Assembly: GCA_023544525.1 (NCBI GenBank)
Contig: JAMJFU010000001.1
Coordinates: 1,259-65,258 of the forward strand
Length of the DNA stretch: 64,000 nucleotides
DNA from: Anaerolineae bacterium
Lineage (GTDB): Bacteria > Chloroflexota > Anaerolineae > JAAYZQ01
Direction of reading: 5' to 3'
The notes beneath the pieces were generated by a model. The model worked only from the letters and a program-made list of their open reading frames with translations. It was not told the origin of the DNA and did no database searches. Within the stretch, counting starts at the first letter, position 1; each line of letters begins with the position of its first letter. Position numbers and translations under genes: made by a program. This document shows, one piece after another, positions 2,327 to 41,483 of this stretch.

Positions 2327-2330
2327 GATC

Positions 2331-5376: not shown

Positions 5377-6561
5377 ATGGCGGATCGTCTGACCGGTTCC
5401 GAGCAGGACCTCTTTGCCGCAGTGCTGGGCCTGCGGGGTGGTGAGCGGATCAGCGCCTGCTACCAATGCGGGACCTGCTCCGGCTCCTGCCCTACTGCTG
5501 CGATCATGGAGTACAATCCCCGCCGCATCCTCCACATGCTGCGCCTGGGTCTGGGGGAACGCGTGCTCAAGAGCCAGGCAATCTGGCTATGCACTGCCTG
5601 TTACTCCTGTACCGCCCGCTGCCCCCGCGAGATCAAGATCAGCGATGCTATGCTCAGCTTGCGCCGCCTCACAATAGACCGCGGGCTGGATCTGCCCGCG
5701 AACCTGGCGACCATGCGGGATACGGTGACCCACCACCACAACATCTCGGGCGATGACAATGCCAGCCGCCTCATCTGGAGTGACAACCTGGAGGAGGGTG
5801 CTCTTGCCTTCCGGCAGAAGCGCCGTGCAGAGGTTGCTTTCTACGTCGGCTGCGTGGCCTCCTTCTACCCCATGGTCTATGGCATTCCCCAGGCTATGGT
5901 CCAGGTGATGGACCGGGCGGGTGTGGATTTCGCTGCACTTGGCGGTGAGGAATGGTGCTGCGGTTACCCTCTGTACACCGCCGGGATGGAGGGCCTGCTC
6001 GCCGAGCTGATGGCCCATAACGTGGCGCGCGTGCAGGAGATGGGGGCCAAAACCCTGGTGACGACCTGCCCCTCCTGCTATTACACCTGGTCGCACCTCT
6101 ATCCGGAGTTGGAATCCAAGCCCCTTGGCTTCGAGGTGCTGCATGCCTCGCAGTTTCTGGCCCGGCTGGTGGGCGATTCCGCTGTGAAGCTGGGAAGCTT
6201 TGAGCAGACGGTGACCTATCACGATCCGTGCGATCTGGGGCGCAAGAGCGGCATTTTTGACGCCCCGCGGCAGGTCATCGAGGCGATGCCGGGCATTGAG
6301 TTTCGGGAGATGGATGCCCATCGTGAGAACGCTCTTTGCTGCGGCGGGGGAGGGGACGTCCAGATGGTGGACGAACGGGTGACTGAGACGGTCGCTTCGC
6401 GGCGTCTTGGCCAGGCCCAGCAGACGGGCGCGCGGGTGATCCTTTCGGCCTGCCAGCAGTGTAAGCGGACCTTGATGGCTGCCACCCGCCGGGACAAGGT
6501 ACGTATGCGGGTCATGGACCTCTCTGAATTGGTTTTGCGGGCGATGGAGGGCGGAGCATGA
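5377..6561 (+). CDS. Heterodisulfide reductase-like Fe-S protein, HdrC/HdrB fusion (HdrD/GlpC-like; 2x[4Fe-4S] ferredoxin + two CCG domains)
   Basis: CYQCGTCSGSCP and CTACYSCTARCP ferredoxin motifs followed by Cys-rich CCG-type segments (EEWCCGYP, CPSCYY, HDPCDLG, CCGGGG). Confidence 0.75.
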   Translation: MADRLTGSEQDLFAAVLGLRGGERISACYQCGTCSGSCPTAAIMEYNPRRILHMLRLGLGERVLKSQAIWLCTACYSCTARCPREIKISDAMLSLRRLTIDRGLDLPANLATMRDTVTHHHNISGDDNASRLIWSDNLEEGALAFRQKRRAEVAFYVGCVASFYPMVYGIPQAMVQVMDRAGVDFAALGGEEWCCGYPLYTAGMEGLLAELMAHNVARVQEMGAKTLVTTCPSCYYTWSHLYPELESKPLGFEVLHASQFLARLVGDSAVKLGSFEQTVTYHDPCDLGRKSGIFDAPRQVIEAMPGIEFREMDAHRENALCCGGGGDVQMVDERVTETVASRRLGQAQQTGARVILSACQQCKRTLMAATRRDKVRMRVMDLSELVLRAMEGGA

Positions 6562-9500
6562 GAATTGGTGTCTACGTCTGCTACTGTGGATCCAACATCG
6601 CCGGGACGGTGGACGTCGAGGCGGTGGCCAGGTATGCTGAGCAACTGGACGGCGTATTCGTGGCTCGCACCAACAAGTACACCTGTTCCGATCCGGGGCA
6701 GGAGAGCATCCGCCACGACATCTGCGAGTACGGTGTCGACCGGGTGGTTGTAGCTGCCTGCTCGCCGCGCATGCACGAGCGGACCTTCCGCGGGACGCTA
6801 CACTCGGTAGGCCTGAACCCCTACTTTCTGGAGATAGCCAACCTCCGCGAGCACTGTTCCTGGGTGCATACGGACATGGTCACAGCCACGGCCAAGGCAA
6901 AAGACTTGATCCGGGCCGCCGTGGAACGGGTGCGCCGGCACGAACCACTCTATCCTCGCCAGGAACCGGTCACCCGGTCGGCCATGGTGGTCGGCGGGGG
7001 CATCGCTGGCATCCAGGCCGCGCTGGACATCGCCAATTCAGGATACCCGGTCTATCTGGTTGAGCGACAGCCATCTGTCGGCGGGCACATGGCCCAGTTG
7101 GACAAGACCTTCCCCACCCTCGATTGTTCGGCCTGCATCCTCACGCCCAAAATGGTAGACCTTGCGGCGCACCCCAACGTCCACCTGTTGGACTATAGCG
7201 AGGTGGAAGATGTGCAGGGCTATGTCGGCAACTTTCGGGTGAAGGTCCGGCGCAAGCCACGCTACGTCGACGTAGACAAATGCACCGGCTGCGGAACCTG
7301 TGCCGAGGCCTGCCCACGCGAGCTGCCCAGCGAGTTCGACCTGGGGCTCGCCAAACGCAAAGTGATCTACCGGCCCTTTCCCCAGGCAGTGCCCAACGCC
7401 TTTGTGATCGACAAAGTGGGCATTGCACCTTGCCAGAATGCCTGTCCGGCAGGCCAGCATGCCCAGGGCTATATCTCCTACATCCGGGAAGGCCGGTTCG
7501 AAGAGGCCCTGCGCATCATTCGCGAGGACAACCCCTTTGCCAGCGTTTGCGGCCGGACCTGCCACCACCCCTGTGAGGGCAACTGCAACCGGCGCCTGGT
7601 CGACGAGTCCATCGCCATCATGGAGCTGAAGCGCTTTGTGGTGGATTATGTCTATGCCCGGGGTCTGCCACGCCCCATCGAGCCGGTGTCCCAGACGCGT
7701 GAGGAGCGCGTGGCGATCGTTGGCTCTGGGCCCTCCGGCTTGACGGCGGCTCAGCACCTGAACAAGATGGGCTATGGCGTGACCGTGTTCGAGGCGCTCC
7801 CGGTGGCTGGAGGCATGATGCGCACGGGCATCCCGGAGCATCGCTTGCCCAAAGGCATCCTACAGCGCGACATCGACGACATCCTGGCCCTGGGTGTGCA
7901 GTTGCGGCTGAATAGCCCGGTCGGCCAGCCGGCGACACTGCTCAAAGCCCATGGTGGCAATTACGATGCAGTCTATCTGGCAACCGGTGTGAGCCGGACC
8001 ACGAGTCTGGGGATACCGGGCGAAGAACTGACGGGCGTGCTGTCGGGCATCGCGTTTTTGAGGCACGTCAGCCTCGGCCGGCCTGTGCGGATCGGGAAGA
8101 GAGTCGCCGTGGTAGGGGGCGGCATCACCGCCGTGGATGCAGCCACCACGGCCCTGCGCCTGGGGGCTGAAGAGGTGAGCCTGGTCTACCGTCGATCCAG
8201 GGGCGAGATACCGGCCTATTCCTGGGAGCTGGAAGAGGCAGAGGCAGAGGGTGTCCGTCTGTTGACCAACACCGTGGCCACGCGCATCCTGGACAACGAC
8301 GGCTGTGTGAGCGGAATGGAATGTGCCCAGTCGCGGCAGCTGAGCAAGATCGACGACAGTGGCAAGCGGGTGGTCGTGCCCGATCCGGGCACAGAGTTTG
8401 TCATGGAGGTGGACACCGTCATCCGGGCCATCGGCCAGTTCTCCGACCAGGTATTCCTAGAGGAGCCATTCGATACGATGGTGGGTGACCAGGAAACGCT
8501 GGCCACGGGGATCAGCGGGCTCTTTGCCGGCCGCGGGGCTGTCGCGGGTGCTGGGTTCGTCATCAATGCCGTGGCCTCGGGACACGAGGCTGCCCGCTCC
8601 ATCCATCGCTACCTGCAGGGTGAGCCCCTGCAACAGGCGGAGCCCAACAAGCGGCCGGTGGAAAAGTGGACCCGCGAGGAAGCAGAGACCAAGGTGCGGC
8701 TGGGCGCCATCGTACCCACACCACGCCAAGAGCCAGCGCGCCTATCCCTGGAGGAACGGGTAGAGACCTTCCGGGAAGTAGTGCTGCCCCTGACGAAGGA
8801 GCAGGCCATGGCCGAAGCAGCCCGCTGCCTGGACTGTGGCATCTGCTCCGAGTGCTACCGCTGCGTGTGGGCCTGCGAGCGAGAGGCCATCGACCACAAC
8901 ATGCAGGAGCGGGTGGAAGAGCTTGAGGTCGGGGCCATCGTGCTGGCGACGGGTTTCGAGCTGTATGACGCCCGAAATTTGCCGCAATATGGTTATGGAC
9001 GCCATGAGAACGTGTATACTGCGCTGGAGGTGGAGCGGCTGGTCAACGCCAGCGGCCCAACCGGGGGCCACGTCGTCTTGAGAGACGGGCGCGAGCCCGG
9101 CGCCGTGGCCATCCTTCACTGCATCGGCAGCCGGGACCGGCAGCACAACGCCTACTGCTCCCGCGTCTGCTGCATGTACTCGATGAAACTGGCCCACCTG
9201 ATCCGGGAAAAGACCCACGCCCAGGTCTATGAATTCTATTTCGACATTACTGCCTACGGCAAAGGCTATGCCGAATTCTATGAGCGCATCCAGGAGGAAG
9301 GCGTCATCTTTGTGCGGGGCAAGGGCGCCGAGGTCGGAAGAGGGCCCGGTGGCGGCTTGGTCGTCCGCGCCGAGGAGACCCTGCTGGGTGAGATTGTAGA
9401 GATCCCCGTAGACATGGTCGTGCTGTCCACGGCCATGGTGCCCGCCGCCGATGCCGAGCAGCTGGCCCAGCTCTTCCACGTCAGCCGCAGCGAGGATGGC

Positions 9501-9929
9501 TTTTTCCTGGAAGCGCATCCCAAGCTGCGGCCCGTGGAAACCGCCATGGACGGCATTTACCTGGCCGGTACGTGCCAGGCGCCCAAGGACATCCCCGATA
9601 CAGTGTCCCAGGCGAGCGGTGCGGCGGTCCAGGCCGTGGCGCTGCTAAACCGGGGCCAGGTCGAGATCGAACCGATGACCGCTGAAGTACTCCCCCTGCG
9701 CTGCGTTGCCTGTGGCCTATGCGCCGAAGTATGCCCGGCCGGAGCAGTGCGCATGGTCGATACGCGTGGCGGCAGGCTGGCCGAGATCAACCCGGCCCTG
9801 TGCAAGGGCTGTGGCCTGTGCGTCGCCGCCTGCCGGGGCGGGGCGATCACCCTGCACGGCTTTACGGACCAGCAGCTATTGGACCAGTTAACGGCCCTGC
9901 TGCGCCCCGCGGCCCTTGTGCCTGCGTGA
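6558..9929 (+). CDS. hdrA: HdrA-like FAD flavoprotein fused with GltD/NfnB-like NAD(P)H-binding module (HdrL-type), 1123 aa
   Basis: N-terminal Cys-cluster domain (CYCGSNIAG), FAD GxGxxG (VVGGGIAGIQAAL), inserted ferredoxin (CTGCGTCAEACP), internal GltD-like segment (CQNACPAG...RTCHHPCEGNC...IVGSGPSGLTAA...VAVVGGGITAVD), HdrA C-terminal region and CVACGLCAEVCP / CKGCGLCVAAC ferredoxin; ATGA overlap with upstream gene. Confidence 0.8.
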   Translation: MRIGVYVCYCGSNIAGTVDVEAVARYAEQLDGVFVARTNKYTCSDPGQESIRHDICEYGVDRVVVAACSPRMHERTFRGTLHSVGLNPYFLEIANLREHCSWVHTDMVTATAKAKDLIRAAVERVRRHEPLYPRQEPVTRSAMVVGGGIAGIQAALDIANSGYPVYLVERQPSVGGHMAQLDKTFPTLDCSACILTPKMVDLAAHPNVHLLDYSEVEDVQGYVGNFRVKVRRKPRYVDVDKCTGCGTCAEACPRELPSEFDLGLAKRKVIYRPFPQAVPNAFVIDKVGIAPCQNACPAGQHAQGYISYIREGRFEEALRIIREDNPFASVCGRTCHHPCEGNCNRRLVDESIAIMELKRFVVDYVYARGLPRPIEPVSQTREERVAIVGSGPSGLTAAQHLNKMGYGVTVFEALPVAGGMMRTGIPEHRLPKGILQRDIDDILALGVQLRLNSPVGQPATLLKAHGGNYDAVYLATGVSRTTSLGIPGEELTGVLSGIAFLRHVSLGRPVRIGKRVAVVGGGITAVDAATTALRLGAEEVSLVYRRSRGEIPAYSWELEEAEAEGVRLLTNTVATRILDNDGCVSGMECAQSRQLSKIDDSGKRVVVPDPGTEFVMEVDTVIRAIGQFSDQVFLEEPFDTMVGDQETLATGISGLFAGRGAVAGAGFVINAVASGHEAARSIHRYLQGEPLQQAEPNKRPVEKWTREEAETKVRLGAIVPTPRQEPARLSLEERVETFREVVLPLTKEQAMAEAARCLDCGICSECYRCVWACEREAIDHNMQERVEELEVGAIVLATGFELYDARNLPQYGYGRHENVYTALEVERLVNASGPTGGHVVLRDGREPGAVAILHCIGSRDRQHNAYCSRVCCMYSMKLAHLIREKTHAQVYEFYFDITAYGKGYAEFYERIQEEGVIFVRGKGAEVGRGPGGGLVVRAEETLLGEIVEIPVDMVVLSTAMVPAADAEQLAQLFHVSRSEDGFFLEAHPKLRPVETAMDGIYLAGTCQAPKDIPDTVSQASGAAVQAVALLNRGQVEIEPMTAEVLPLRCVACGLCAEVCPAGAVRMVDTRGGRLAEINPALCKGCGLCVAACRGGAITLHGFTDQQLLDQLTALLRPAALVPA

Positions 9930-9964
9930 CCGGGCGCCGGGCCCTATCAAGGAGGAAAGACCCT

Positions 9965-10438
9965 ATGGCCCTCATGACCGGAGACGAGATCCTCGAGATC
10001 GCAACCCGCCTCGAAGAGAACGGCGAGGCATTCTACGCCTCGGCCGCAGATTGTGCGACGACGGCTGGGGTCAAGGCGCTGTTCCGGGACCTGGCGCTGC
10101 AGGAACGCCTCCACCGCCGCGCGTTCGAAGCGATGGCGGGCGGCGAGGTGACGTTGGGTTTTACAGCCGAGCAGCACGAGGAGTTCCTGGCCTACACCGA
10201 CGCGCTCTTGCGCAAGGAGTTCTTTGATGGCAGCGGTGGTGCCCTCGACCGTGCTGCACATGCCGGCGACGAGCGCTCGGTTCTGAAGGCCGCACTGGAA
10301 TTTGAGAAGGAGACTCTCCTCTTCTACCACGAACTCGAGGGAATCGTTGGCAACGCGGATCGGGAAACCGTGGCAGGGATCATCCAGGAGGAGAAGCAGC
10401 ATATCCAGCGCCTGTCAAAGATGCTGGCTGCAGTTTGA
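9965..10438 (+). CDS. Rubrerythrin/ferritin-like diiron protein
   Basis: Four-helix ExxH-type repeats (EENGEAFY, QERLHRRAFE, EFEKETLLFYHELE, EEKQHIQRL); AAGGAGGAAAG RBS upstream of ATG 9965. Confidence 0.7.
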   Translation: MALMTGDEILEIATRLEENGEAFYASAADCATTAGVKALFRDLALQERLHRRAFEAMAGGEVTLGFTAEQHEEFLAYTDALLRKEFFDGSGGALDRAAHAGDERSVLKAALEFEKETLLFYHELEGIVGNADRETVAGIIQEEKQHIQRLSKMLAAV

Positions 10439-10500
10439 GATGCGCTGTGCTCCACCGGTTGGCCATGCGATCGAATGAGGGAAAGAGAAGGACAGGTTGA

Positions 10501-10932
10501 ATGACTGAGAGCTTTGAGCCCAGGATCGTCGGGTTTCTCTGCAACTGGTGTAGTTACGCGGGGGCCGACATGGCCGGCACCAGCCGCATCGCCTATCCGC
10601 CCAACATCCGCATTGTCCGCGTACCGTGCTCGGGACGGGTGGACCCCCTCTTTGTGCTGAAGGCATTCCAGGAGGGGGCCGACGGGGTGCTGGTGGCGGG
10701 CTGCCATCCCGGTGACTGCCACTACGGTGATGGCAACTATCACGCCCGCCGTCGCTACGCCCTGATGCACAGCTTGCTCGATTACGTGGGCGTCGATGCT
10801 GGGCGCCTGCGCATCGACTGGGTGTCGGCCGCCGAGGGCAACCGCTTTGCCCAAGTGGTCGCCGAGTTAACCGAGCAGGTGAGAGAGCTTGGTCCGTGGG
10901 CCGGCCGGCAAGAGCGGGAGGTGGCCGCATGA
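10501..10932 (+). CDS. mvhD: MvhD/FlxD-like hydrogenase-type Fe-S subunit (methyl-viologen-reducing hydrogenase delta family)
   Basis: Near-consensus FlpD/MvhD motifs FLCNWCSYAGADMAG, VRVPCSGRVDP, DGVLVAGCHPGDCHY. Confidence 0.85.
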   Translation: MTESFEPRIVGFLCNWCSYAGADMAGTSRIAYPPNIRIVRVPCSGRVDPLFVLKAFQEGADGVLVAGCHPGDCHYGDGNYHARRRYALMHSLLDYVGVDAGRLRIDWVSAAEGNRFAQVVAELTEQVRELGPWAGRQEREVAA

Positions 10933-11789
10933 GCAGGGAGATCCAGGAGGGCATCCGGGTCCAGGCGCGAGAATTGCTGGGCCTGGGCGAGATATCCTGT
11001 GTGATCGGCTACGAACAAGGTCCGAAGGGCCGCGTCCGGCCGGCATTCGTCTACGATCAGGCTGGCACTGACCGCCTGGTCTGGGACCAGACGTGCCACC
11101 ATAACCTGGTGGTCTACCTGCACGACCGCCGCAAAGGGGGCAAGACCTCCGCGGCGTCCCGGGTGGCCGTGGTTGCCAGGCCCTGTGACGTGCGGGCCCT
11201 GAACGTGTTGATCCACGAGGGACAGGTATCCAGGGAAGAGGTCTTTGTGATCGGCGTGGCCTGCCCGGGCATGGCGGAGGGTGCCACGCTGCAGGCCCAT
11301 TGCCAGCGCTGCCGGGAGCGTGTTCCGGTGTTCTATGACGCCTTGGTCGGCGAGCCGGCCAGGGTCAAGCTCCCTGCCGACGATTGGTCCGACGTGGCGG
11401 AATTGGAGGGGATGACCCCGGCTGAGCGACTGGCCTTCTGGAGCCGCGAATTCGACCGCTGCATCCGCTGCTACGCCTGCCGCCAGGCCTGTCCCGGCTG
11501 TTACTGCTTCGAATGCCTGGCTGAGCAAGTCGATCCAGCCTGGGTCAGCATTGCCCACGGCCTATCGCAGAAGGCCTTTTTCCACGTCATGCGCGCCTAT
11601 CACCTGGCGGGCCGCTGCGTGGAGTGCCAGGCCTGCGACCAGGCCTGCCCGATGCACATCCCACTCAGCCTCCTGAACCGAAAAATCGCCAAAGAGGTGG
11701 AAGCCCTGTTCAACTACAAAGCTGGGGGTGATCCCGAGATCCCACCGCCGCTGGCGACTTTTCTCAAGGACGAGGAGTTGCCGCTTTGA
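10929..11789 (+). CDS. Fe-S cluster protein of HydB/AsrA/FlxB-C family
   Basis: CIRCYACRQACPGCYCFEC and CVECQACDQACP cysteine motifs; ATGA overlap with mvhD stop, GGGAGGTGG RBS. Confidence 0.65.
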   Translation: MSREIQEGIRVQARELLGLGEISCVIGYEQGPKGRVRPAFVYDQAGTDRLVWDQTCHHNLVVYLHDRRKGGKTSAASRVAVVARPCDVRALNVLIHEGQVSREEVFVIGVACPGMAEGATLQAHCQRCRERVPVFYDALVGEPARVKLPADDWSDVAELEGMTPAERLAFWSREFDRCIRCYACRQACPGCYCFECLAEQVDPAWVSIAHGLSQKAFFHVMRAYHLAGRCVECQACDQACPMHIPLSLLNRKIAKEVEALFNYKAGGDPEIPPPLATFLKDEELPL

Positions 11790-11799
11790 AGGAGCACGA

Positions 11800-12810
11800 A
11801 TGAAAGCAACGAGTAGAAGCGACCTGCTGGCCTGGCTCGATGCGCTTTCCGAGCAGTATACGGTGATTGCGCCCCGGATGGTCGACGGAGAGCTGCTCTA
11901 CCGGCCTGTGCACGCCAGCGACGAGGTCGTGCTCGACTTTGAGCGGACGAGGCTATCGGCAAAATCCTATCTCCTGCCCGAGACCGAGGTCATCCTCGAG
12001 ATCGAGAGACAGGAGGGCCAGGTGACGCTGGGCGAACCGAGGCTGGACCGGGATCAGGTAATCCTGCTGCGGCCCTGTGATGCCCGGGCTCTGCGCGCCC
12101 TCGACGCGCTGCTGCTGGATCGCCCACCAGCCGACGCCTACTATGCCGATCGACGCGAGAAGACGAGCTTGATCGGCCTCGCCTGCCCCCAACTCTGGGA
12201 CGATTGTTTCTGTACGAGCCTGGGCAGCGCCCCTGACGATGCTTCGGCCGTGGACGTGATGGTCTATAAAGATGGCGACGCCCACCTGGTAGAGGTGATC
12301 ACAGGCAAGGGCCGGGCCCTGATGGACGGGCTGGAAGCAGAAGAGGTGGAACGACCTACCCCGCACTCTGACAGGTCCGGCGAGCAGATAGCCGTGCTGG
12401 CGCCGGAGGATTGGCCCGGCCTGTTCGACGAGGCCTACTGGCACCAGCTCGCCGAGCGCTGCCTCAGTTGCCACGCTTGCACCTACGTCTGTCCTACCTG
12501 TCGCTGCTTCGATGTGCGCGATGATACGACGGCGGCGGGCGCCAGCTACACGCACATCCAGCGCCTGCGGGCCTGGGATAGCTGCATGGCCAGCGCCTAC
12601 CGGCGCATTGCCGGCGGCCACAACCCACGTCCGGACAAGGCGCAGCGCCTGCGCAACCGCTACTATTGCAAATTCTGCTATTCGCCTTCCGATTTCGGAG
12701 CCGTGGCCTGTGTGGGCTGTGGGCGGTGCATTGAGGTTTGCCCGGTGGGCGTGGATATCGCCGAGATGCTGGCCAACGTGGCTGCCCTGGCCAAAGGGAG
12801 GAGCGCGTGA
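11800..12810 (+). CDS. Fe-S cluster protein, anaerobic sulfite reductase subunit A-like (HydB/AsrA/FlxB-C family)
   Basis: CLSCHACTYVCPTCRCF and CVGCGRCIEVCP motifs, paralogous to preceding gene; GAAGGAG RBS before ATG 11800. Confidence 0.65.
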   Translation: MKATSRSDLLAWLDALSEQYTVIAPRMVDGELLYRPVHASDEVVLDFERTRLSAKSYLLPETEVILEIERQEGQVTLGEPRLDRDQVILLRPCDARALRALDALLLDRPPADAYYADRREKTSLIGLACPQLWDDCFCTSLGSAPDDASAVDVMVYKDGDAHLVEVITGKGRALMDGLEAEEVERPTPHSDRSGEQIAVLAPEDWPGLFDEAYWHQLAERCLSCHACTYVCPTCRCFDVRDDTTAAGASYTHIQRLRAWDSCMASAYRRIAGGHNPRPDKAQRLRNRYYCKFCYSPSDFGAVACVGCGRCIEVCPVGVDIAEMLANVAALAKGRSA

Positions 12811-13634
12811 GCGAGCGAGACAACCCCCTGCGCCCACTGCTGGGCACGCTGGTGGACACCAAGGACCTGGCCGACGACATCAAGCTTTTCCAGATCGAGT
12901 TGAATGGGGACCGCTTTGAGTACCAACCCGGCCAGTTTGCCTTTGTCTCGGCCTTTGGCGTGGGTGAGGCACCCTTTGGTTTGGCCTCGGTATCGTCGCG
13001 GACCCCTGCGCTGGAGTTTGCCATCAACCGCATCGGGACAGTCACCTCGGCCCTGCACGGCCTGGAACGCGGGGCGGTGGTCGGCGTGCGTGGGCCCCTG
13101 GGGAACGCTTTCCCGCTGGATGAGATGCAGGGCAAGAACGTCGTCGTGCTGGGTGGGGGTATCGGTGGCGCGCCCCTGAGGCCGGTCATCCACACCATCC
13201 TGGACAACCGTCCCGATTATGGCCACCTGGATATCCTGTGGGCGGCGCGCAGCCCCTCGCTCCTGGTGTTTACGGACGAATACGACGACTGGCGCTCGGC
13301 GCCCGATACGGAACTGCACCTGACGGTGGACAAGGGAGACAGCGACTGGACAGGGAACGTGGGCCTCATCACCGGACTATTGGAGAAGGCAGCGCCCTCG
13401 CCCGAGGATGCCGTGGCCATCATCTGCGGGCCGCCGATCATGATCAAGTTCACGGTCCTGACCCTGCAAAAGCTCGGCTTCACCGCTGAGCAGATGATCA
13501 TGACGCTGGAAGCCAAGATGAAATGCGGCATCGGCAAATGCGGGCGCTGCAACCTGGGCGAAAAGTTCGTATGCCTGGATGGCCCTGTCTTTTCCTATGC
13601 CCAGGTATCCCATTTCCTGGAGAGTTTCGTCTAG
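12807..13634 (+). CDS. flxA: FAD/NAD(P)H-binding oxidoreductase with C-terminal [2Fe-2S] (HydG/AsrB/FlxA/PyrK-like), GTG start
   Basis: Ferredoxin-reductase-like fold motifs (GQFAFVS, VVVLGGGIGGAPL) and C-terminal CGIGKCGRCN; GTGA overlap with upstream stop and AAGGGAGGA RBS. Confidence 0.7.
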   Translation: MSERDNPLRPLLGTLVDTKDLADDIKLFQIELNGDRFEYQPGQFAFVSAFGVGEAPFGLASVSSRTPALEFAINRIGTVTSALHGLERGAVVGVRGPLGNAFPLDEMQGKNVVVLGGGIGGAPLRPVIHTILDNRPDYGHLDILWAARSPSLLVFTDEYDDWRSAPDTELHLTVDKGDSDWTGNVGLITGLLEKAAPSPEDAVAIICGPPIMIKFTVLTLQKLGFTAEQMIMTLEAKMKCGIGKCGRCNLGEKFVCLDGPVFSYAQVSHFLESFV

Positions 13635-16335: not shown

Positions 16336-16364
16336 TTGACAGGACGGCATGCTTGTGATAGACT
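16336..16364 (+). promoter_or_regulatory. Candidate promoter TTGACA-17-TAGACT for fdh/nuoE-like operon
   Basis: Sequence motifs; followed in 5'UTR by inverted repeat GTGACG-N7-CGTCAC (16476-16494). Confidence 0.35.
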
Positions 16365-16586: not shown

Positions 16587-17054
16587 ATGGAGCAAGAGAC
16601 ACTGGATTTGGCGCCTTTGTACGAGATGCTGAAGGAGTACAAGACCCAGCGTGGTGCAGTGATCCCAGCGTTGCAGAAGGCCCAGGGCATTTATGGCTGG
16701 CTACCAAAGGAGGTACTGGAGGTTGTCTCGCAAGAGATGCGCGTACCGCTCAGCCAGATCTATGGGGTCGTGACCTTCTATTCACAGTTCTATCTTACCC
16801 GCCGCGGGCGGCACATCTGCCGGCAGTGCGATGGAACCGCCTGTCATGTCAAAGGCGCTGCCGCCATCGTCAGCGCGGCCGAGAAGCACCTCGGCGTCAA
16901 GGCTGGCGAGACGACACCAGACTACGAGGTCACCTTTGAGGTCGTCTACTGCCTCGGTTCCTGCGGCCTGGCACCGGTAGCCATGATCGACGACAAGGTC
17001 ATCGGGCACCTCGTGCCGGAACGGATGGTGGACATTCTGGACAAGTTGGAGTAG
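16587..17054 (+). CDS. NuoE/HoxE/HndA-like thioredoxin-fold [2Fe-2S] subunit
   Basis: CRQCDGTACHVKGA ... VVYCLGSCGLAP motifs. Confidence 0.85.
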   Translation: MEQETLDLAPLYEMLKEYKTQRGAVIPALQKAQGIYGWLPKEVLEVVSQEMRVPLSQIYGVVTFYSQFYLTRRGRHICRQCDGTACHVKGAAAIVSAAEKHLGVKAGETTPDYEVTFEVVYCLGSCGLAPVAMIDDKVIGHLVPERMVDILDKLE

Positions 17055-17216: not shown

Positions 17217-17612
17217 ATGATGCCAAAGCTCAAGTCGATTGAGGATCTGAAAGCGGTCCGCGAACAGGCCCAAAGGGATCTGAAGGTGCGCACCGAGACC
17301 GGCACCCGGATCATCGTCGGGATGGGGACATGTGGCATCGCCGCGGGCGCCCGCGAGACAATGCATGCCATCCTCGAGGAACTCGACCGGCAGGGGATCG
17401 AGGCCAATGTCACAACCGTCGGTTGTATCGGCATGTGCTCCAAGGAACCCCTGGTGGACATCGAGCAGGCAGGGCGACCGCGGATCACCTATTGCAACGT
17501 CGATCCCAGCATGGTGCCGCGGCTCATCGAAGAGCACCTGCGCCAGGGCAATGTGGTTTATGAGTGGACGATGGGCCGAGTGCCCAGCGAGGGCATCGGA
17601 CAGAGTTCATGA
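17217..17612 (+). CDS. HndB-like small thioredoxin-fold [2Fe-2S] ferredoxin
   Basis: GMGTCGIAAGA and GCIGMCSKEP motifs. Confidence 0.65.
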   Translation: MMPKLKSIEDLKAVREQAQRDLKVRTETGTRIIVGMGTCGIAAGARETMHAILEELDRQGIEANVTTVGCIGMCSKEPLVDIEQAGRPRITYCNVDPSMVPRLIEEHLRQGNVVYEWTMGRVPSEGIGQSS

Positions 17613-17659: not shown

Positions 17660-20600
17660 ATGAGCGAAGCATTGCGCCGGGCCAACGTCCTGGTCTGCGG
17701 TGGGACGGGTTGTGAGGCCTCCGGCTCTCACGATACCTTCCAAAGGCTCACCGAGGAGGTGGAGCGGCGGGGCCTTACCAACGAGGTACAGCTGATCCAC
17801 ACTGGCTGCCGGGGGTTCTGCGCCATGGGACCCATTGTGATCATCTATCCGGAAGGGATCTTTTACTGCCAGGTCCAAGGGGAGGACATCCCACTCCTTG
17901 TCGAGGAGACGCTGGTCAAAGGCCATATTGTGGAGCGATTGACCTACAAGGAACCTGCTGCGCATCAGGCGGTGCCCTTCTACAGCCAGATCCCCTTCTA
18001 CGAAAAGCAGAAGCGCATCATCCTGCGCAACTGCGGCATGATCGACCCGGAAAATCTGGAGGAGTATATTGCCCGTGACGGCTACCAGGCCCTGGGCAAG
18101 GTTCTGTCGACGATGACCCCTCGGGACGTCTACGGAGAGGTCAAGGCCTCCAAGCTCCGGGGCCGGGGCGGCGCAGGCTTTCTTACCGGTCTCAAGTGGG
18201 AGTTTACCGCCCGGGCCCAGGCAGAGCCCAAGTACGTCGTCTGCAACGCCGACGAGGGCGATCCTGGTGCCTTCATGGACCGCTCGGTCATCGAAGGGGA
18301 TCCCCATAGCTTGCTTGAGGGCATGATCATCTGCGGCTATGCCATCGGCGCCAGGGAAGGATACGTCTACTGCCGGGCGGAATACCCATTGGCCATCAAA
18401 CGCCTCGAGATCGCCATGGCCCAGGCCGAAGAGTACGGGCTGCTGGGAGACAACATCCTGGGCACCGACTTCTCCTTCCATCTCCATGTGAAGGAGGGAG
18501 CCGGCGCCTTTGTCTGCGGCGAGGAAACGGCGTTGCTGGCCTCCATCGAGGGCCGGCGCGGCGAGCCTCGCCCGCGGCCTCCCTTTCCGGCCGTTGTCGG
18601 CCTGTGGGGCAAGCCCACCAACCTGAACAACGTGAAGAGCTATGCCAGCGTGCCGCAGATCATACTTAACGGGGCAAAGTGGTTCGCCAGCATCGGCTCG
18701 CCCGAATCGCCAGGCACGGCCATTTTTGCGCTCACCGGCAAGGTGAACAACACGGGCCTGGTCGAGGTGCCGATGGGCATCATGTTGGGCGAGATCATCT
18801 TTGACATCGGTGGCGGCATTCCCAACGGCAAACCCTTCAAGGCGGTACAGACCGGCGGGCCTCTGGGCGGCTGTATCCCGGTCCAGCACCTCAACGTGCC
18901 GGTTGACTTTGACTCGCTGAAAGAGGTCGGGGCCGTTATGGGCTCCGGCGGCATGATCGTTGTCGACGAAGACACCTGCATGGTTGAATTCGCCAAGTTC
19001 TTCCTGACCTTTGCCACCGCCGAGAGCTGTGGCAAATGCGTTCCCTGTCGCATGGGCGGCAAGCGCATGCTTGAGGTGTTGACTCGCATCACGGAGGGCC
19101 GGGGCCGGCTGCAAGATCTGGTCACCCTCCGCGAGCTTGCCGCCGGCATGGAGGAAGCTTCGCTGTGTGCCTTGGGCCAGCTGACGCCCGGCCCGGTCAA
19201 GTCCGCACTACAATACTTTGAAGACGAGTTCATCGCCCACATCGTCGATAAGCGCTGCCCCGCGGGCGCGTGCACAAGCCTGGTCCGTGCCCGGTGTATC
19301 AACGCCTGCCCGGCCGACGTGGACGTGCCCAGCTACGTGGCACTGGTGGCCCAGGGCCGCTACGCAGAGGCACTGGAGATCCATCGCCGCACCAATCCCT
19401 TCCCCCTGGTCTGTGGCCGTGTGTGCCCGGCCTTTTGCGAAGACCGCTGCCGGCGGGCCGATATCGACGAAGCGATCGCCATACGTGACGCCAAACGCTT
19501 CATGGCCGATCACGAGTTGGAACGGCCGTGGACGCCGCCGAGATATGGCGAAGCCAAGGACCAAAAGGTTGCCGTCGTCGGCTCCGGGCCGGCGGGGCTC
19601 ACGGCCGCCCTCCGCCTGGCGCAGCAGGGCTACCCGGTCACAGTGTTCGAACAGCTTCCCGCGCCAGGCGGCATGATGGCATTCGGCATTCCGGACTATC
19701 GCCTGCCGCGCGACATTCTGAATGCCGACATCGAAGCCATCACCCGGGCCGGAGTCGAGATCCGCTGCAACCAGGCCCTGGGCCGTGACTTTAGCCTCGA
19801 CTCCCTGTCTGAGGATGGCTACAGTGCCGTGGTGCTGGCCATAGGCGCTCACAAGAGCAGCAAGCTGCGCATCGAGGGCGAGGAAAAGGAAGGCGTCCTG
19901 CCCGGTGTCGACTTTTTGCGGGAGGTGGCCCTGGACAACCCGCCCGATCTCACAGGCAAACGCGTAGGGGTGGTCGGCGGAGGCAATGTAGCCATCGACG
20001 CCGTGCGCACGGCCTGGCGGCTGGGTGCCAGCCAGGTTCACGTCATCTATCGCCGCCTGCGGGAGGACATGCCAGCCTACGAAGAAGAGATCAAGGCTGC
20101 CGAAGAGGAAGGTGCCATCTTCCACTTCCTGACCAATCCCACCCGGGTTCTGGGCGATGGGCATGTGACGGGGGTAGAGTGCCTGGTCCACGAGCCGGGC
20201 GACTTTGACCGGAGCGGTCGCCGTCGTCCGGTGCCGGTCCCAGGCTCAGAGTTCACCCTGGACCTCGACGTGCTCATCCCAGCCATCGGCCAATCGCCTG
20301 ACGTCGAGTGGTTGGCTGGTGATCCGGCAATTGCCCTCCAGCGGAACAACACCTTCGAAGTCAGCGGGGCGCTGTGCACGTCGCGGGAGGGTGTGTTTGC
20401 GGCAGGTGATGCCGTCCTTGGACCGGCTACCGTGGTAGAGGCAGTGGCGCAGGGCAACGAAGTGGCCCGCGCGGTGGATCACTATCTGCGAACCGGGACG
20501 ACGGAAAAGACCGTCATGATGCCTGGCTATGAGGTGGTGGAGCAGCCCTTTGACCTGGACGAATATGCCGATGCGCGCCGGCCTCACAGACCCGAGTTGC

Positions 20601-20791
20601 CGGTCGGCGAGCGTCGTGGCAACTTTCGCGAGGTCGAATTGGGCCTGGACGAAGAGACAGCCCGTGAGGAGTGCAAGCGCTGTCTGCGTTGCGACCTGGA
20701 ATGGTTGGAGACGATGCAGCTTGCGTTTGAGCCTGTCCCCGCGCGCCAGGCATCCAAAGTGTTCTCAGCAAGCAGGAGAGATAACCAATGA
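17660..20791 (+). CDS. NuoF/HoxF-like NAD(H)-binding flavoprotein fused to GltD/NfnB-like NAD(P)H module (formate dehydrogenase diaphorase beta subunit)
   Basis: GRGGAGFLTGLKWEF FMN/NADH motif, C-terminal 4Fe-4S (CGKCVPCR), then GltD-like CINACPA...VCGRVCPAFCEDRC...VVGSGPAGLTAA...VGVVGGGNVAIDA. Confidence 0.8.
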   Translation: MSEALRRANVLVCGGTGCEASGSHDTFQRLTEEVERRGLTNEVQLIHTGCRGFCAMGPIVIIYPEGIFYCQVQGEDIPLLVEETLVKGHIVERLTYKEPAAHQAVPFYSQIPFYEKQKRIILRNCGMIDPENLEEYIARDGYQALGKVLSTMTPRDVYGEVKASKLRGRGGAGFLTGLKWEFTARAQAEPKYVVCNADEGDPGAFMDRSVIEGDPHSLLEGMIICGYAIGAREGYVYCRAEYPLAIKRLEIAMAQAEEYGLLGDNILGTDFSFHLHVKEGAGAFVCGEETALLASIEGRRGEPRPRPPFPAVVGLWGKPTNLNNVKSYASVPQIILNGAKWFASIGSPESPGTAIFALTGKVNNTGLVEVPMGIMLGEIIFDIGGGIPNGKPFKAVQTGGPLGGCIPVQHLNVPVDFDSLKEVGAVMGSGGMIVVDEDTCMVEFAKFFLTFATAESCGKCVPCRMGGKRMLEVLTRITEGRGRLQDLVTLRELAAGMEEASLCALGQLTPGPVKSALQYFEDEFIAHIVDKRCPAGACTSLVRARCINACPADVDVPSYVALVAQGRYAEALEIHRRTNPFPLVCGRVCPAFCEDRCRRADIDEAIAIRDAKRFMADHELERPWTPPRYGEAKDQKVAVVGSGPAGLTAALRLAQQGYPVTVFEQLPAPGGMMAFGIPDYRLPRDILNADIEAITRAGVEIRCNQALGRDFSLDSLSEDGYSAVVLAIGAHKSSKLRIEGEEKEGVLPGVDFLREVALDNPPDLTGKRVGVVGGGNVAIDAVRTAWRLGASQVHVIYRRLREDMPAYEEEIKAAEEEGAIFHFLTNPTRVLGDGHVTGVECLVHEPGDFDRSGRRRPVPVPGSEFTLDLDVLIPAIGQSPDVEWLAGDPAIALQRNNTFEVSGALCTSREGVFAAGDAVLGPATVVEAVAQGNEVARAVDHYLRTGTTEKTVMMPGYEVVEQPFDLDEYADARRPHRPELPVGERRGNFREVELGLDEETAREECKRCLRCDLEWLETMQLAFEPVPARQASKVFSASRRDNQ

Positions 20792-23490
20792 CAGAGACGG
20801 TGAGCATCACCATCGACGGCCAGGCGATCCAAGCCCGGGCCGGCCAATCCATACTGGAGGCAGCGACCGCAGCGGGCATCAAGATCCCCGCCCTTTGCCA
20901 TCACCCGGCCCTGAAGCCGATCGGTGCCTGCCGCGTTTGCCTGGTCGACATCGCCTTTGAGCGAGCCTTGCACCCAGCTTGCACGTACGAAGTCAGGCAA
21001 GGGATCGAGGTCCATACACGTTCACCCAAGGCTGAAGAAGCCCGGCGATTCGCGCTGGAGCTCATCCTGTCTGACCATCCTTTGGACTGCATGACCTGTG
21101 AGCGTACCGGGAGTTGCGAGCTGCAGGACCTGGCCTACCAGTATGGCATCAAGGAGAGCCAGTTTCCCGGGACACAGCACGAGTATGCGCTCGACACGTC
21201 CAACCCCTTCTACGAGCGAGACTATGAAAAGTGCATCCTCTGCCGCCGCTGTGTCCGTACCTGCGATGAGATCAATGGCGTGGAAGCCATCGCCGTCATC
21301 CAGCGCGGCTGGGACAGTAAGATCGGCACTGCTTTCGACGGCATCATGCAGGACAGCCCCTGCGAGTTCTGCGGCATGTGCGTCGAAGTCTGCCCAACCG
21401 CAGCACTGCAACCCAGGCTGGGCAAACAGCAGGGCCGTGCCTGGGAGGTGGAGAAAGTAGCAACCACGTGCCCCTACTGCGGCGTCGGTTGCCAGTTCTA
21501 CCTCAAGGTCAAGGACGGGCGCATCCTGGGCGTAGCCTCCAAGTGGGACGCCCCGGCAAATCACGGCTGGACCTGCGTCAAGGGCCGTTATGGCTGGGAC
21601 TTTGTCCACCATCCTGAGCGCTTGACCCAGCCACTTATCCGCCGTGAGAAGGGCGGCGAGTTGGAGGAAGCCGGCTGGGACGAAGCCCTGGACCTCGTGG
21701 CGCAGCGATTCAAGGCGATCGTGAAAGACCATGGACCGCAGGCGTTCGGCACACTGGCCTCGGCCAAGTGCACCAACGAAGAGAACTTTGCCATGCAAAA
21801 GTTCAGCCGCGCTGTGATAGGGACCAACAACGTCGACCACTGTGCACGCCTTTGACACAGCGTCACCGTGACCGGTCTGGTCACAGCGTTTGGCTCCGGG
21901 GCCATGACGAACTCGTTCGACGACATCGCCGACGAGGCACAGGTCTACTTTATCATCGGCTCCAATACGACCGAGAACCATCCGGTGCTGGGCATGCGCT
22001 TGCGGCAAGCGGTGAAACAGCGCAACGCCAAGCTCATCGTCTGCGATCCGCGCGCCATCCCCATCGCGGATCTGGCGACGCTCCATATCCGCCAGAAGCC
22101 GGGCACCGACATCGCCCTGCTCAACGGCATCATGCACGTCCTCATCGCCGAGGGGCTGTACGACAAGGAGTTCGTCGCCGAGCGCACCGAGGGGTTCGAG
22201 GACCTGAAAGCCAAGGTGATGGAATACCCTCCCGAGCGAGCTGCCGAGATCACCGGCGTACCAGCTGAGCAGATCGTGGAAGCAGCGCATCTTCTGGCGG
22301 AGAACCGTCCCGGCGCCCTGCTCTACGCTATGGGTATCACCCAGCACATAACTGGCCATCAAAACGTACTGTCCTGCGCCAACCTGCAGATGCTACTGGG
22401 CAACATGGGTGTACCGGGCGGAGGCGTCAACCCGCTACGTGGACAGAACAACGTCCAGGGCGCCTGCGATATGGGCGGCCTGCCGAACGTCTACCCCGGC
22501 TACCAGGCCGTGACGGTCGAAGCGGCCCAGAAAAAGTTCGAGGAAGCCTGGGGCGTACCCCTCTCAAACCAGGTCGGGCTGACCCTGACCGAGATGTTGC
22601 CGCTTGCAGCGGAGGGCAAGATCCGCGCACTGTACATCATGGGTGAAAACCCGATGATCTCGGACCCGGACGCCAATCACGCCGAGCACTGCCTGCGCAG
22701 CCTGGACTTTCTGGTGGTGCAGGACATCTTTCTGACCGAGACCGCAGCCCTGGCCGACGTCGTGCTTCCAGGGTCGAGCTTTGCCGAGAAGCTGGGCACC
22801 TACACCAACTCGGAGCGGCGCGTCCAGTTTGTGAACCCCGCGGTACCTGCGCCGGGCGAAGCCAGGCCTGACTGGTGGATCATCGGTGAGATTGCACAGC
22901 GGATGGGCTACGGCGGCCTGACCTACGCCTCGCCGCGCGAAATCATGGACGAGATCAACCAGCTGACGCCCAGCTACGGGGGCATCACCTACGACCGCAT
23001 TGGCCAGATGGGCCTGCAGTGGCCTTGCCCCAATGCCGACCATCAGGGCACGGCGATCCTGCATATCGGCAGGTTCAGCCGGGGATTGGGCCACTTTGGC
23101 GCGGTGGATTGGCGGCCACCCGCCGAGGAAACCGACGAGGAGTATCCGTTTGTCTTTACCACCGGCCGTGTCCTCTACCACTACCATACGGGCAGCATGA
23201 CCCGGCGCTCAGAGGGATTGGATGCGATCTTCCCCGAGCCCGTGGTAGAGATCAACGCGGAGGACGCCGCGCGGTTGGAAGTGGTGGATGGGCAGCCGGT
23301 GCGGATCTCTTCACGGCGTGGCACGATCGAGGCAGAGGCCCTGGTAAGCCCCATGACCGAACCGGGTGTGGTCTTTATGCCCTTCCACTTTGCCGAGGCG
23401 GCGGCCAACAAGCTGACCATTGCCGCCCTGGACCCAATCGGCAAGATCCCGCAGTTGAAGGTCTGTGCCGTCAAGGTTGAGACAGTCTGA
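20788..23490 (+). CDS. fdhA: Formate dehydrogenase alpha subunit (NuoG-like N-terminus + molybdopterin domain), selenoprotein: in-frame TGA at 21853-21855 read as Sec
   Basis: ORFs 20788..21855 and 21868..23490 are in the same frame separated only by TGA in the conserved context DHCARL-U-HSVT (E. coli FdhF CARVUHGPS); SECIS-like hairpin follows; ATGA overlap with upstream gene. Confidence 0.85.
21856..21888 (+). other. SECIS-like selenocysteine insertion hairpin (GUGACC-GGUCU-GGUCAC)
   Basis: 6-bp stem with GGUCU apical loop ~20 nt 3' of UGA; UGA-CAC...GGU-CUG codon spacing identical to E. coli fdhF SECIS. Confidence 0.6.
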
Positions 23491-23540
23491 CATTTTCCGC
23501 CCGGGCCGGCCCGGGCGGAAAGGCGACAAGGAGAGAGGAA

Positions 23541-24035
23541 ATGGATGTAACCAAGATCTATGAGTATGCCCTTCAGCGCGAGCGCGAGGGCCGGGACTTT
23601 TTTCGCAACAATGCCCAGCGCTTTGGGCACGCGGCGGTCGTGGGCGCCTTTGAGAAGCTGGCTGAGGAAGAGGAAAAGCACATCCGCTTTATCCAGAGCC
23701 TGCTCGATGCCCAGCAGGCGGGCGGTGCATCCAGCCTGGAGACGGGCCAGCAGATGGACAGGGAGGGCTTTTTCTCCGAGCGTGCCGAGACCGAGCTGCT
23801 GGACCAATCGATCATCGAGGCGATGGTGCCCGACCTGGCGGTGCTGCGCACGGCTTATCTGATCGAGCGCGACTTTGCCGAGTTCTATGAAATGGCAGCC
23901 GACAAGGTCGAGGATCCGACAGCCAAAGAGTCGCTGCAGATGCTAAGCCGCTGGGAGCGACAGCACGAGAAGCTGTTCAAAACAATGCACGACCGGGCCT
24001 TTGAAGAGTATGCGGCCATGCCCTGGGGTGGCTAG
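23541..24035 (+). CDS. Rubrerythrin/ferritin-like protein
   Basis: ExxH diiron-type motifs (EREGRDFF, EEEKHIRF, ERDFAEFY, ERQHEKLF). Confidence 0.6.
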   Translation: MDVTKIYEYALQREREGRDFFRNNAQRFGHAAVVGAFEKLAEEEEKHIRFIQSLLDAQQAGGASSLETGQQMDREGFFSERAETELLDQSIIEAMVPDLAVLRTAYLIERDFAEFYEMAADKVEDPTAKESLQMLSRWERQHEKLFKTMHDRAFEEYAAMPWGG

Positions 24036-24140
24036 CCTGATCGTATCCGGTTGACCAGGAGGAGCTTGCGTCGCTCCGCTTACGGCCCAAACGATCATCT
24101 TCACCTGCAAGAGCGACCAGAGTACCAAAGGGGAGGGACC

Positions 24141-24599
24141 ATGAGCATCGAAGAGATCCTGCACGAGGCGATCCAGGGTGAGATCGAATCGTACGAGCTA
24201 TACACCAACGCTATAGAACTGGTAAAGCAGGAGCACGTCAAGGAGACACTGCGCGAGCTCGCCCAGGAAGAGCTGGGTCACAAGGCCGCGCTGGAAAGGA
24301 TGGCTGCCAGCCCGGGCAGCGTGCGGCGCGGCGTGAAGCGATTGCAGCGGACGCCCATCCAGGACTACAGGATCGGCGACCACCTGGTCGTCAAGCCACT
24401 CGGGCCTGATTCCACGTTCCAGGACGTGTGTATCTTTGCCTCTCGCAAGGAGCAACAGTCGTACGAGCTCTACCGGGATCTAGCAGAGGAGAACGAGGGC
24501 GAGGTCCGTGCCTTATTCGAGGCTATGGCCAAGGATGAACTCCGGCACAAGAACCTGGTCGAGGGCTGGTACGAGGAGGTCATCTACCAGGACTTTTAG
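24141..24599 (+). CDS. Rubrerythrin/ferritin-like protein
   Basis: ExxH motifs (EIESYELY, ELGHKAAL, EQQSYELY, ELRHKNL); AAGGGGAGGGA RBS before ATG 24141. Confidence 0.6.
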   Translation: MSIEEILHEAIQGEIESYELYTNAIELVKQEHVKETLRELAQEELGHKAALERMAASPGSVRRGVKRLQRTPIQDYRIGDHLVVKPLGPDSTFQDVCIFASRKEQQSYELYRDLAEENEGEVRALFEAMAKDELRHKNLVEGWYEEVIYQDF

Positions 24600-41135: not shown

Positions 41136-41483
41136 GTCGGCCTTCTCGAGAACTGGAGCTGGTGCAAACTACAGCATTCCTCCAGAACAGCCGTTTTCGG
41201 GCCCGGTCTCGGAACCTGCGCCGGTTGCCAAGCGTCTCATAGGTGTGTGCAGTTCTGTCTTGTAGTGGACAAGCAATGAGATCGGTGCTATACTCGCTAC
41301 TCGGAGCCTTGAGCAGGCTGGTATCCTCGCCGCGGCGGGAAGGCAAGGCAGGTGGTGTTGCCCCTCATCTCCCTGGCGCCTGTCCCTTTCGCCAGCCGGC
41401 CCTCTAAGCGTGGGCCGGACGATGGCTCAGCGTGGGCCAGATACTGGTCAAGAATCATCCGGCAAGGGGCGGATGGGCTTACA

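Follow-up and report, generated by a model that had tools for sequence, protein, structure and literature searches.

The alpha subunit of formate dehydrogenase (FDH), FdhA, is the most widespread of the bacterial selenoproteins, being found in 67 of 75 selenocysteine (Sec)-using organisms (PMC1794560), and there is an earlier report of a Sec-containing FdhA of the NAD(P) type from a single-cell genome related to the Anaerolineae (PMC5736913). The selenocysteine insertion sequence (SECIS) of bacteria has been described as a stem of 6–8 bp whose loop has a conserved G some 20 nt past the UGA (PMC4605307), and in the SECIS of E. coli fdhF the residues G23 and U24 of the apical loop, together with U17, are critical (PMC8659212). 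Here we present a predicted gene of this kind from a 64-kb stretch of DNA of a probable Anaerolineae bacterium (hereinafter the window, by which we mean the whole of that stretch), where a preliminary description had claimed that two adjacent open reading frames (ORFs) are a single fdhA split at a Sec codon. E. coli FdhF, which acts in the formate-hydrogen lyase complex, lacks the NuoG-like N-terminal extension of ~220 residues found in the window FdhA. The same NuoG-like plus pterin architecture as in the window protein is, on the other hand, seen in the FdsABG-type NAD-dependent FDHs (Rhodobacter capsulatus, 6tg9/6tga; Methylorubrum extorquens, 7vw6/7e5z). Both the FdsABG-type enzymes and the window FdhA are partnered with NuoF-like and NuoE-like subunits. 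At the active site, the FdsABG-type enzymes have a Cys. The NADP-dependent Sec/W FDH of Moorella thermoacetica (PMC5736913) is cytoplasmic and contains Sec, as is predicted of the window enzyme, and in Type 1 Fdh-Bfu (BfuABC, e.g., that of Carboxydothermus hydrogenoformans; PMC9304861) the pterin site lies, as in the window, on a NuoG/BfuA-like subunit encoded beside NuoF/BfuB-like and NuoE/BfuC-like genes.

In the window, the ATG at 20788 and the TGA at 21853–21855 share one frame, in which the next stop is the TGA at 23488–23490. The mechanical ORF list accordingly gives 20788..21855 (355 aa) and 21868..23490 (540 aa, with a GTG start) in the same frame with the first TGA between them, so that the coordinates and frame claimed for the two abutting ORFs were reproduced; the JGI gene calls on two related metagenome contigs show the same split into 355 aa and 540 aa. 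When the two parts were joined with a placeholder residue at the TGA, the NCBIfam equivalog model for Fdh-alpha (TIGR01591) matched with 855.3 bits against a curated cutoff of 666.25, and did so in one stretch across the TGA (residues 226–897; profile positions 1–672 of 672). Conversely, when the halves were scanned separately, the Pfam Molybdopterin domain was found to be broken by the TGA, with profile positions 1–81 falling upstream and 97–352 downstream of it. The single match over the TGA and the domain cut by it bear out the proposal of one gene split at a Sec codon. The joined protein contains the Pfam domains Fer2_4, NADH-G_4Fe-4S_3, Fer4_Nqo3, Molybdop_Fe4S4, Molybdopterin, and Molydop_binding, of which the first three make up the N-terminal ~220 residues, i.e., the NuoG-like extension typical of cytoplasmic NAD-linked FDHs, and the rest constitutes the Mo/W-bis-pyranopterin catalytic domain. 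Its best full-length relatives in the PDB (7vw6, 7e5z, 6tg9, and 9wxb) match residues 4–897 with 764–776 bits. Taking this together with the evidence presented below, we put at roughly 0.93 the probability that 20788–23490 is one formate dehydrogenase gene whose UGA codon 356 is read as Sec. The split ORF is an annotation artefact of the kind that ORF callers, which routinely cut such genes in two, produce; the two ORFs should be merged in the annotation into one fdhA with Sec at residue 356.

A pairwise alignment of the window protein with E. coli FdhF, whose sequence was taken from an annotated genome record, showed 45.7% identity over 676 positions. In this alignment, U140, H141, and R333 of FdhF correspond to residue 356 (the TGA), H357, and R551 of the window FdhA, and the 4Fe-4S cysteines C8, C11, C15, and C42 along with K44 correspond to the identical residues C228, C231, C235, C263, and K265; the two proteins thus have in common the Sec position, the His, the Arg, the cluster-binding cysteines, and the Lys. 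The placement of the TGA on the Sec site of FdhF/FdhA enzymes, as asserted in the preliminary description, is hence upheld by the concatenated protein. In database searches, for which alone a Cys was substituted for the U of the query, a Cys occupied the TGA column in the motif DHCARL-C-H in 117 of the 120 best homologues listed. Two further matches were 540-residue JGI metagenome proteins with 97% identity to the downstream ORF, and the DNA of the two JGI contigs is identical to that of the window over the TGA and the hairpin that follows it. Each of the full-length homologues checked among those listed has a Cys, the closest being up to 73% identical, as is to be expected given that gene callers truncate the Sec forms.

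The hairpin GUGACC-GGUCU-GGUCAC, which had been described as lying directly 3′ of the TGA, was recovered in the minimum-free-energy (MFE) fold, where it starts 12 nt after the TGA and comprises a 6-bp stem and a 5-nt loop; by itself it has a predicted energy of −9.5 kcal/mol. Numbering from the U of the UGA, the loop residues G23 and U24 fall at 21875 and 21876. The E. coli fdhF SECIS sequence, which is 100% identical in 5412 E. coli records annotated as fdhF, reads UGA CAC GGC CCA UCG GUU GCA GGU CUG, and the window reads UGA CAC AGC GUC ACC GUG ACC GGU CUG; in both alike GGU and CUG are codons +7 and +8, so that G23 and U24 coincide. The canonical spacing that had been claimed for the element therefore holds in register, with the caveat that the bulged U17 is missing. 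In E. coli, an A-U pair closes a 4-nt GGUC loop and the hairpin carries that bulge, whereas the window has a 5-nt GGUCU loop on a continuous 6-bp stem. We predict from these comparisons that the window element works like the E. coli SECIS without having its exact form. It lies within all the bounds published for bacterial SECIS elements (PMC13188914), i.e., an apical loop of 3–9 nt (5 nt in the window, GGUCU), an upper stem of 4–16 bp (6 bp), at least one G in the first two loop positions (GG), a UGA-to-loop spacing of 16–37 nt (18 nt), and an MFE of −7.5 kcal/mol or lower (−9.5 kcal/mol for the hairpin alone). It likewise fits the general description of a 6–8-bp stem cited above. The Rfam SECIS_3 model can be aligned to the window end to end over all of its 59 positions, with the UGA on the model UGA and the apical loops aligned (AGUCU in the model, GGUCU in the window); in this alignment the lower stem is largely unpaired and several of the pairs are non-standard. 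Rfam at its gathering thresholds reported no SECIS over the window, and membership in SECIS_3 was rejected as the score is under that threshold.

The main evidence for an RNA-level signal comes from related loci. A scan of one genome per prokaryotic species (GTDB) yielded 80 loci, in 79 of which the catalytic site was found; with the window and the two metagenome contigs these make up 82 loci, from which the site codon and the next 45 nt were extracted. The closest GTDB loci come from Anaerolineae metagenome-assembled genomes (MAGs) at 74–83% identity (best match, 83%). The catalytic codon is TGA in 57 of the 82 loci and TGC or TGT in 25; among the GTDB loci it is TGA in 54 of 79, including Anaerolineae MAGs at 61–83% identity and all 24 loci within L001–L025, and the TGA loci are spread over several phyla. 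Of the 57 loci in the TGA class, 56 have GGUCU at nucleotides +22 to +26 and 52 form all six stem pairs, even as the stem itself takes 13 distinct forms (e.g., GUGACC/GGUCAC, GUUGCA/UGCAAC, GUCGCC/GGCGAC, and GUGGCG/CGCCAC). By contrast, of the 25 loci in the Cys class, 6 show GGUCU and 1 has a complete stem. Across the 51 distinct TGA sequences, 98.7% of the pair cells hold standard pairs, and double changes affect three of the six pairs, for a total of 55 cells; none of 500 shuffles reached this pairing or this covariation, and sliding the partner by 1–3 columns lowers the pairing to 23–58%. With the same structure imposed on the Cys class, 70.7% of the cells are paired versus a shuffle mean of 66.9%. 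This leftover pairing in the Cys class is imposed by the conserved peptide V-T/A-G-L, and the surplus in the TGA class is an RNA-level constraint. The loop further forces the Gly codon GGU, which accounts for 14% of the Gly codons in the window genes, whereas loci of the Cys class are unconstrained at the third position. The comparative evidence thus lifts the hairpin above chance. More generally, the 57 TGA and 25 Cys loci offer a clean natural control for the synonymous positions constrained by a SECIS, though they reveal no new principle.

Two individual loci stand apart from their classes. The closest Cys-type genomic locus (L026:4698-4748, Chloroflexota MAG JAYEMR010000098.1; 70% identity) has a TGC at the site and yet retains the full 6-bp stem GUGACC/GGUCAC with the loop GGCCU; it looks like a remnant SECIS left after a Sec-to-Cys conversion, as has been described for FdhA (PMC1794560). 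Conversely, a locus in a Proteiniborus sp. MAG (L057:11987-12034) is the sole TGA locus with the loop GGGCU, in which U24 is changed to G; a sequencing error, tolerance of the variant, or decay of the selenoprotein gene could each account for this.

Selection was assessed by the Nei-Gojobori method between the window and 16 TGA-bearing relatives. The ratio of non-synonymous to synonymous divergence (dN/dS) is 0.07–0.23 upstream of the TGA and 0.07–0.25 downstream, with synonymous divergence (dS) ranging from 0.07 to more than 2; purifying selection is thus the same on the 544 downstream codons as on the part before the TGA. An alternative genetic code was considered and rejected, as TGA is the terminator of 16 of 32 well-supported window genes, including nuoF::gltD and fdhA itself. 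A scan of the window found 88 in-frame TGA triplets with 70 or more open codons to either side, as expected by chance for a sequence of 63% G+C. That at 21853 is the only one with long flanks on both sides (356 and 544 codons) inside one gene, and the few other long-flanked cases (e.g., 58071) are ordinary stops between separate neighboring genes; this in-frame TGA scan recovered no other credible split selenoprotein gene in the window.

Several observations weigh against the reading of a Sec-decoded fdhA. With regard to the hairpin, the bulged U17 specific to E. coli is absent, its counterpart at 21869 being paired with A31 in the continuous 6-bp stem. The match to SECIS_3 (RF01989) reaches 31.9 bits (E = 5e-6 in a 111-nt search), the gathering score of the model being 63. 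Moreover, 9 of the 1550 TGA triplets of the window have a 6-bp stem in the same exact register, making the signal a modest one when taken alone, and the 48-nt fold is no more stable than its shuffles (z = 0.29). Thus, the hairpin by itself is only mildly improbable in this G+C-rich window, and the case for a SECIS rests on the comparative data. On the protein side, the full-length database proteins that come nearest among the matches listed, with identities of up to 73%, are the Cys forms noted above. Finally, the Sec-decoding machinery was not seen: selA, selB, and selD were not found in the window either by NCBIfam scans of 37 ORFs across the window, which include nearly all of its longest ones, or by tblastn with E. 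coli SelA, SelB, and SelD, and a search for tRNA-Sec with ARAGORN and Rfam returned only a tRNA-Leu and a tRNA-Ala in the window. The same tblastn queries and ARAGORN recovered no selA, selB, selD, or tRNA-Sec in the 82 related loci and their flanks, and a literature search for selB in Anaerolineae gave nothing directly relevant. As the sel genes were not seen, it is from the sequence comparisons that we infer Sec insertion at UGA 356; the presence of fdhA carries the implication that selABCD and tRNA-Sec are encoded elsewhere in the genome, and it marks the probable Anaerolineae bacterium as a likely selenium user.

Three other explanations for the interrupted gene were weighed against these data. 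A pseudogene, in which a nonsense mutation from TGC or TGT to TGA has struck the catalytic Cys codon and left only a truncated 355-residue product, would require a single base change, and would be in keeping both with the Cys forms that are the nearest full-length homologues among the matches listed and with the lack of sel genes in the window. However, 57 loci from several phyla have kept the TGA, as have all 16 of the relatives used in the selection analysis, over dS values from 0.07 to more than 2, the 544 codons beyond it remain open at a dN/dS of ~0.07–0.25 that equals that of the upstream part, and the covariation of the hairpin is confined to the TGA class; we hold a pseudogene to be extremely improbable. 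That the ORF caller and the JGI calls on the related contigs alike deliver proteins of 355 aa and 540 aa could instead point to two separate genes, one for an Fe-S protein (20788–21855) and the other for a molybdopterin protein starting at the GTG at 21868. Against this, the break would lie inside the Molybdopterin domain and remove the catalytic residue, the supposed GTG start is the first codon of the 5′ arm of the hairpin, one family model spans both parts in a single stretch, and the Cys-type homologues are all single proteins of ~900 aa, rendering separate genes exceedingly unlikely.

A further alternative accepts a Sec-type gene and places it in an organism without the Sec machinery, where the UGA would terminate translation or be read as Cys or Trp by near-cognate suppression to give a poorly active enzyme. 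The lack of sel genes and tRNA-Sec in the window would agree with it, as would the documented loss of the Sec trait and Sec-to-Cys conversions of FdhA (PMC1794560). The comparison with the two near-identical metagenome contigs speaks otherwise: downstream of the UGA there are 30 synonymous and 14 non-synonymous changes (dN/dS 0.14), and the UGA-SECIS stretch is unchanged in both. This low downstream dN/dS and the untouched UGA-SECIS stretch suggest that selection still maintains read-through in this lineage, and we consider a gene stranded without its machinery very unlikely. We accordingly retain the reading of a single fdhA with a Sec codon.

Under the Sec-decoding reading, SelB loaded with GTP and Sec-tRNA(Sec) would bind the hairpin through its C-terminal winged-helix domains as a ribosome arrives at codon 356, and would compete with release factor 2 to place Sec in the A site, so that this UGA would be decoded as Sec. 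In the folded protein, Sec356 would form the formate/CO2 site on the metal-pterin cofactor together with His357 and Arg551. The 4Fe-4S and 2Fe-2S clusters in the NuoG-like N-terminus would carry the electrons onward to three partners encoded upstream (Table 1), namely the NuoE-like subunit, the small ferredoxin-like protein, and the NuoF::GltD flavoprotein, and these would exchange them with NAD(H) and probably with NADP(H). On this reading the product is the alpha, i.e., catalytic, subunit of a NuoG-fused FDH of the cytoplasm that depends on Mo or W, with the identity of the metal, the nucleotide specificity, and the physiological direction of the reaction being deductions. The description of it as a NAD(P)-linked FDH catalytic subunit with a NuoG-like N-terminus, which had been offered beforehand, appears a fair one in light of the domain matches, the FdsA-type relatives in the PDB, and the nuoE-like and nuoF-like genes upstream.

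Table 1. Positions in the window of the predicted Sec-type fdhA, its recoding elements, and the neighboring genes of the cluster
Feature	Position	Strand	Evidence or description
fdhA, formate dehydrogenase alpha subunit, Sec-type	20788..23490	+	900 codons; TIGR01591, Pfam domains, FdhF alignment, dN/dS
In-frame UGA predicted to be read as Sec (residue 356), Mo/W-centre ligand	21853..21855	+	Aligned with FdhF Sec140 and the Cys of homologues
Predicted bacterial SECIS apical hairpin	21868..21884	+	5′ arm GUGACC 21868–21873, loop GGUCU 21874–21878, 3′ arm GGUCAC 21879–21884
Sub-threshold match to Rfam SECIS_3 (RF01989), weakly paired lower stem	21850..21908	+	31.9 bits
nuoE/hoxE-like [2Fe-2S] subunit, first gene of the cluster	16587..17054	+	PF01257 2Fe-2S_thioredx, 168 bits
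Small conserved ORF (131 aa), probably a thioredoxin-like [2Fe-2S] ferredoxin subunit	17217..17612	+	Conservation and tblastn
NuoF::GltD flavoprotein (1043 aa)	17660..20791	+	Pfam Complex1_51K, NADH_4Fe-4S, Fer4_20, Pyr_redox_2
Two rubrerythrin/ferritin-like genes	23541–24035, 24051–24599	+	PF02915 Rubrerythrin in both; directly downstream of fdhA

The gene order nuoE, small ORF, nuoF::gltD, and fdhA recurs in most of the Anaerolineae loci whose contig covers the upstream region. The nuoE-like ORF, which is conserved upstream in the relatives, is matched by the NCBIfam models for NuoE/HoxE and for the FDH gamma subunit, and is preceded by a promoter-like TTGACA-17-TAGACT at 16336–16364, which is a consensus match only. 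The ORF that follows is 64–84% identical in the Anaerolineae loci, where it always lies between nuoE and nuoF. It has no Pfam match at 1e-4. In other phyla, its tblastn matches fall across the 5′ end of the nuoF-like gene, pointing to a thioredoxin-like [2Fe-2S] domain that has become detached and that resembles the N-terminal domain of subunits of the NuoF/HydB type. The nuoF::gltD gene, whose stop overlaps the start of fdhA (ATGA), codes for a protein with two modules, namely a NuoF/HydB-like FMN-NADH module (residues ~1–530) and a GltD/NfnB-like FAD-NADP(H) module (~535–1012). The best PDB matches of the former are 7t2r_B and 7q4v_B, HydB chains of electron-bifurcating hydrogenases. The aligned part ends at query residue ~543–547, i.e., ~55 residues short of the ends of these 597–599-residue chains, with the Fer4_20 domain of the GltD part following directly; in the window homologue of BfuB, the C-terminal GltD/NfnB-like domain appears to replace the last ~55 residues of the HydB chains. 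The cofactor core conserved in BfuBC includes ferredoxin-like clusters at the C-terminus of BfuB, and no CxxCxxCxxxC motif is present anywhere in the NuoF::GltD protein. The GltD part matches 9bov_A, 9n5u_A (NfnA), and 8oh5_C in the PDB, and the protein shows the motifs GSGPAG (641) and GGGNVA (773), the latter being of the GxGxxA type that has been proposed to bind or favor NADP(H) (PMC7483475). The fusion is abundant in Anaerolineae/Chloroflexota metagenome proteins and forms more than 120 database clusters at a minimum of 71% identity, which bear only generic names ('FAD-dependent oxidoreductase', 'NuoF').

By its gene content the cluster fits the gene-level definition of a Type 1 Fdh-Bfu (PMC9304861) with an added NADP(H) module, and differs from BfuABC in the extra small ferredoxin-like ORF. 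The beta subunits of the FdsABG enzymes (500–520 residues in the PDB matches) lack the GltD-like extension of the window NuoF::GltD. The transhydrogenases Stn (StnABC, Sporomusa-type Nfn) and NfnABC (8oh5, 9n5u, and 9bov) have the same set of modules, viz., NuoE-, NuoF-, GltD-, and NuoG/molybdopterin-like, and the GltD part of the window protein has its nearest relatives among the NADP(H)-binding subunits of these enzymes, matching StnC, NfnA, and 9bov_A with 352–407 bits. However, in Stn the GltD module is fused to the NuoG-like subunit, which has no FDH activity (PMC7483475), whereas in the window NuoF carries it, and the NuoG-like subunit is, with its predicted Sec, a bona fide Fdh-alpha. 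A Sec-FdhA of this kind is already well known; the uncharacterised NuoF::GltD partner is the only unusual aspect of the system, and the role of this conserved protein is the only part of it that raises a real question. We tentatively suggest, as one possibility that the module content brings to mind and on which we would not insist, that the Sec-FdhA is the catalytic arm of an uncharacterised four-subunit enzyme widespread in Anaerolineae (NuoE-like, small thioredoxin-like ferredoxin, NuoF::GltD, and FdhA), which would link the oxidation of formate or the reduction of CO2 to NAD(H) as well as NADP(H), and possibly to ferredoxin by electron bifurcation, rather than being a simple NAD-linked FDH. 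If this were true, the enzyme would hold every module of the Stn/NfnABC transhydrogenases plus an active formate/CO2 site.

The two rubrerythrin-like genes may also belong to the fdhA cluster. Homologues of the first are found directly downstream of fdhA in many Anaerolineae loci, and relatives with ~40% identity follow fdhA in several loci of the Clostridia/Tissierellia type (L055, L057, L059, L069, and L071). This linkage of rubrerythrin to fdhA hints at a conserved functional link, possibly the protection of an oxygen-sensitive enzyme from peroxide or oxygen. Directly after the fdhA stop and before the first rubrerythrin gene lies a near-perfect 28-nt G+C-rich palindrome (23494–23521; UUUCCGCCCGGGCC/GGCCCGGGCGGAAA) with no U-run after it; rather than acting as an intrinsic terminator, it could be a hairpin for stabilisation or processing of the mRNA.

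Elsewhere in the window there is a second redox cluster (5377–13634), which codes for an HdrB/C-like protein (5377–6561), an HdrA-like protein of 1123 aa with an inserted GltD-like NAD(P) module (6558–9929, an uninterrupted ORF with no in-frame TGA), a rubrerythrin-like ORF (within 9719–10438), a 4Fe-4S protein (10896–11789), and AsrA/ShyB-like and AsrB/ShyC-like subunits (11728–13634). The NiFe-hydrogenase maturation genes hypF, hypD, and hypE are found at 14–4483, and no gene for a hydrogenase large or small subunit was recognised among the window ORFs scanned. Further downstream, a gene for a penicillin-binding protein of the PBP1A/PBP1C family (41352–44087) is followed by one for a 2026-aa bacterial alpha-2-macroglobulin (44127–50207), the two forming a known pairing.

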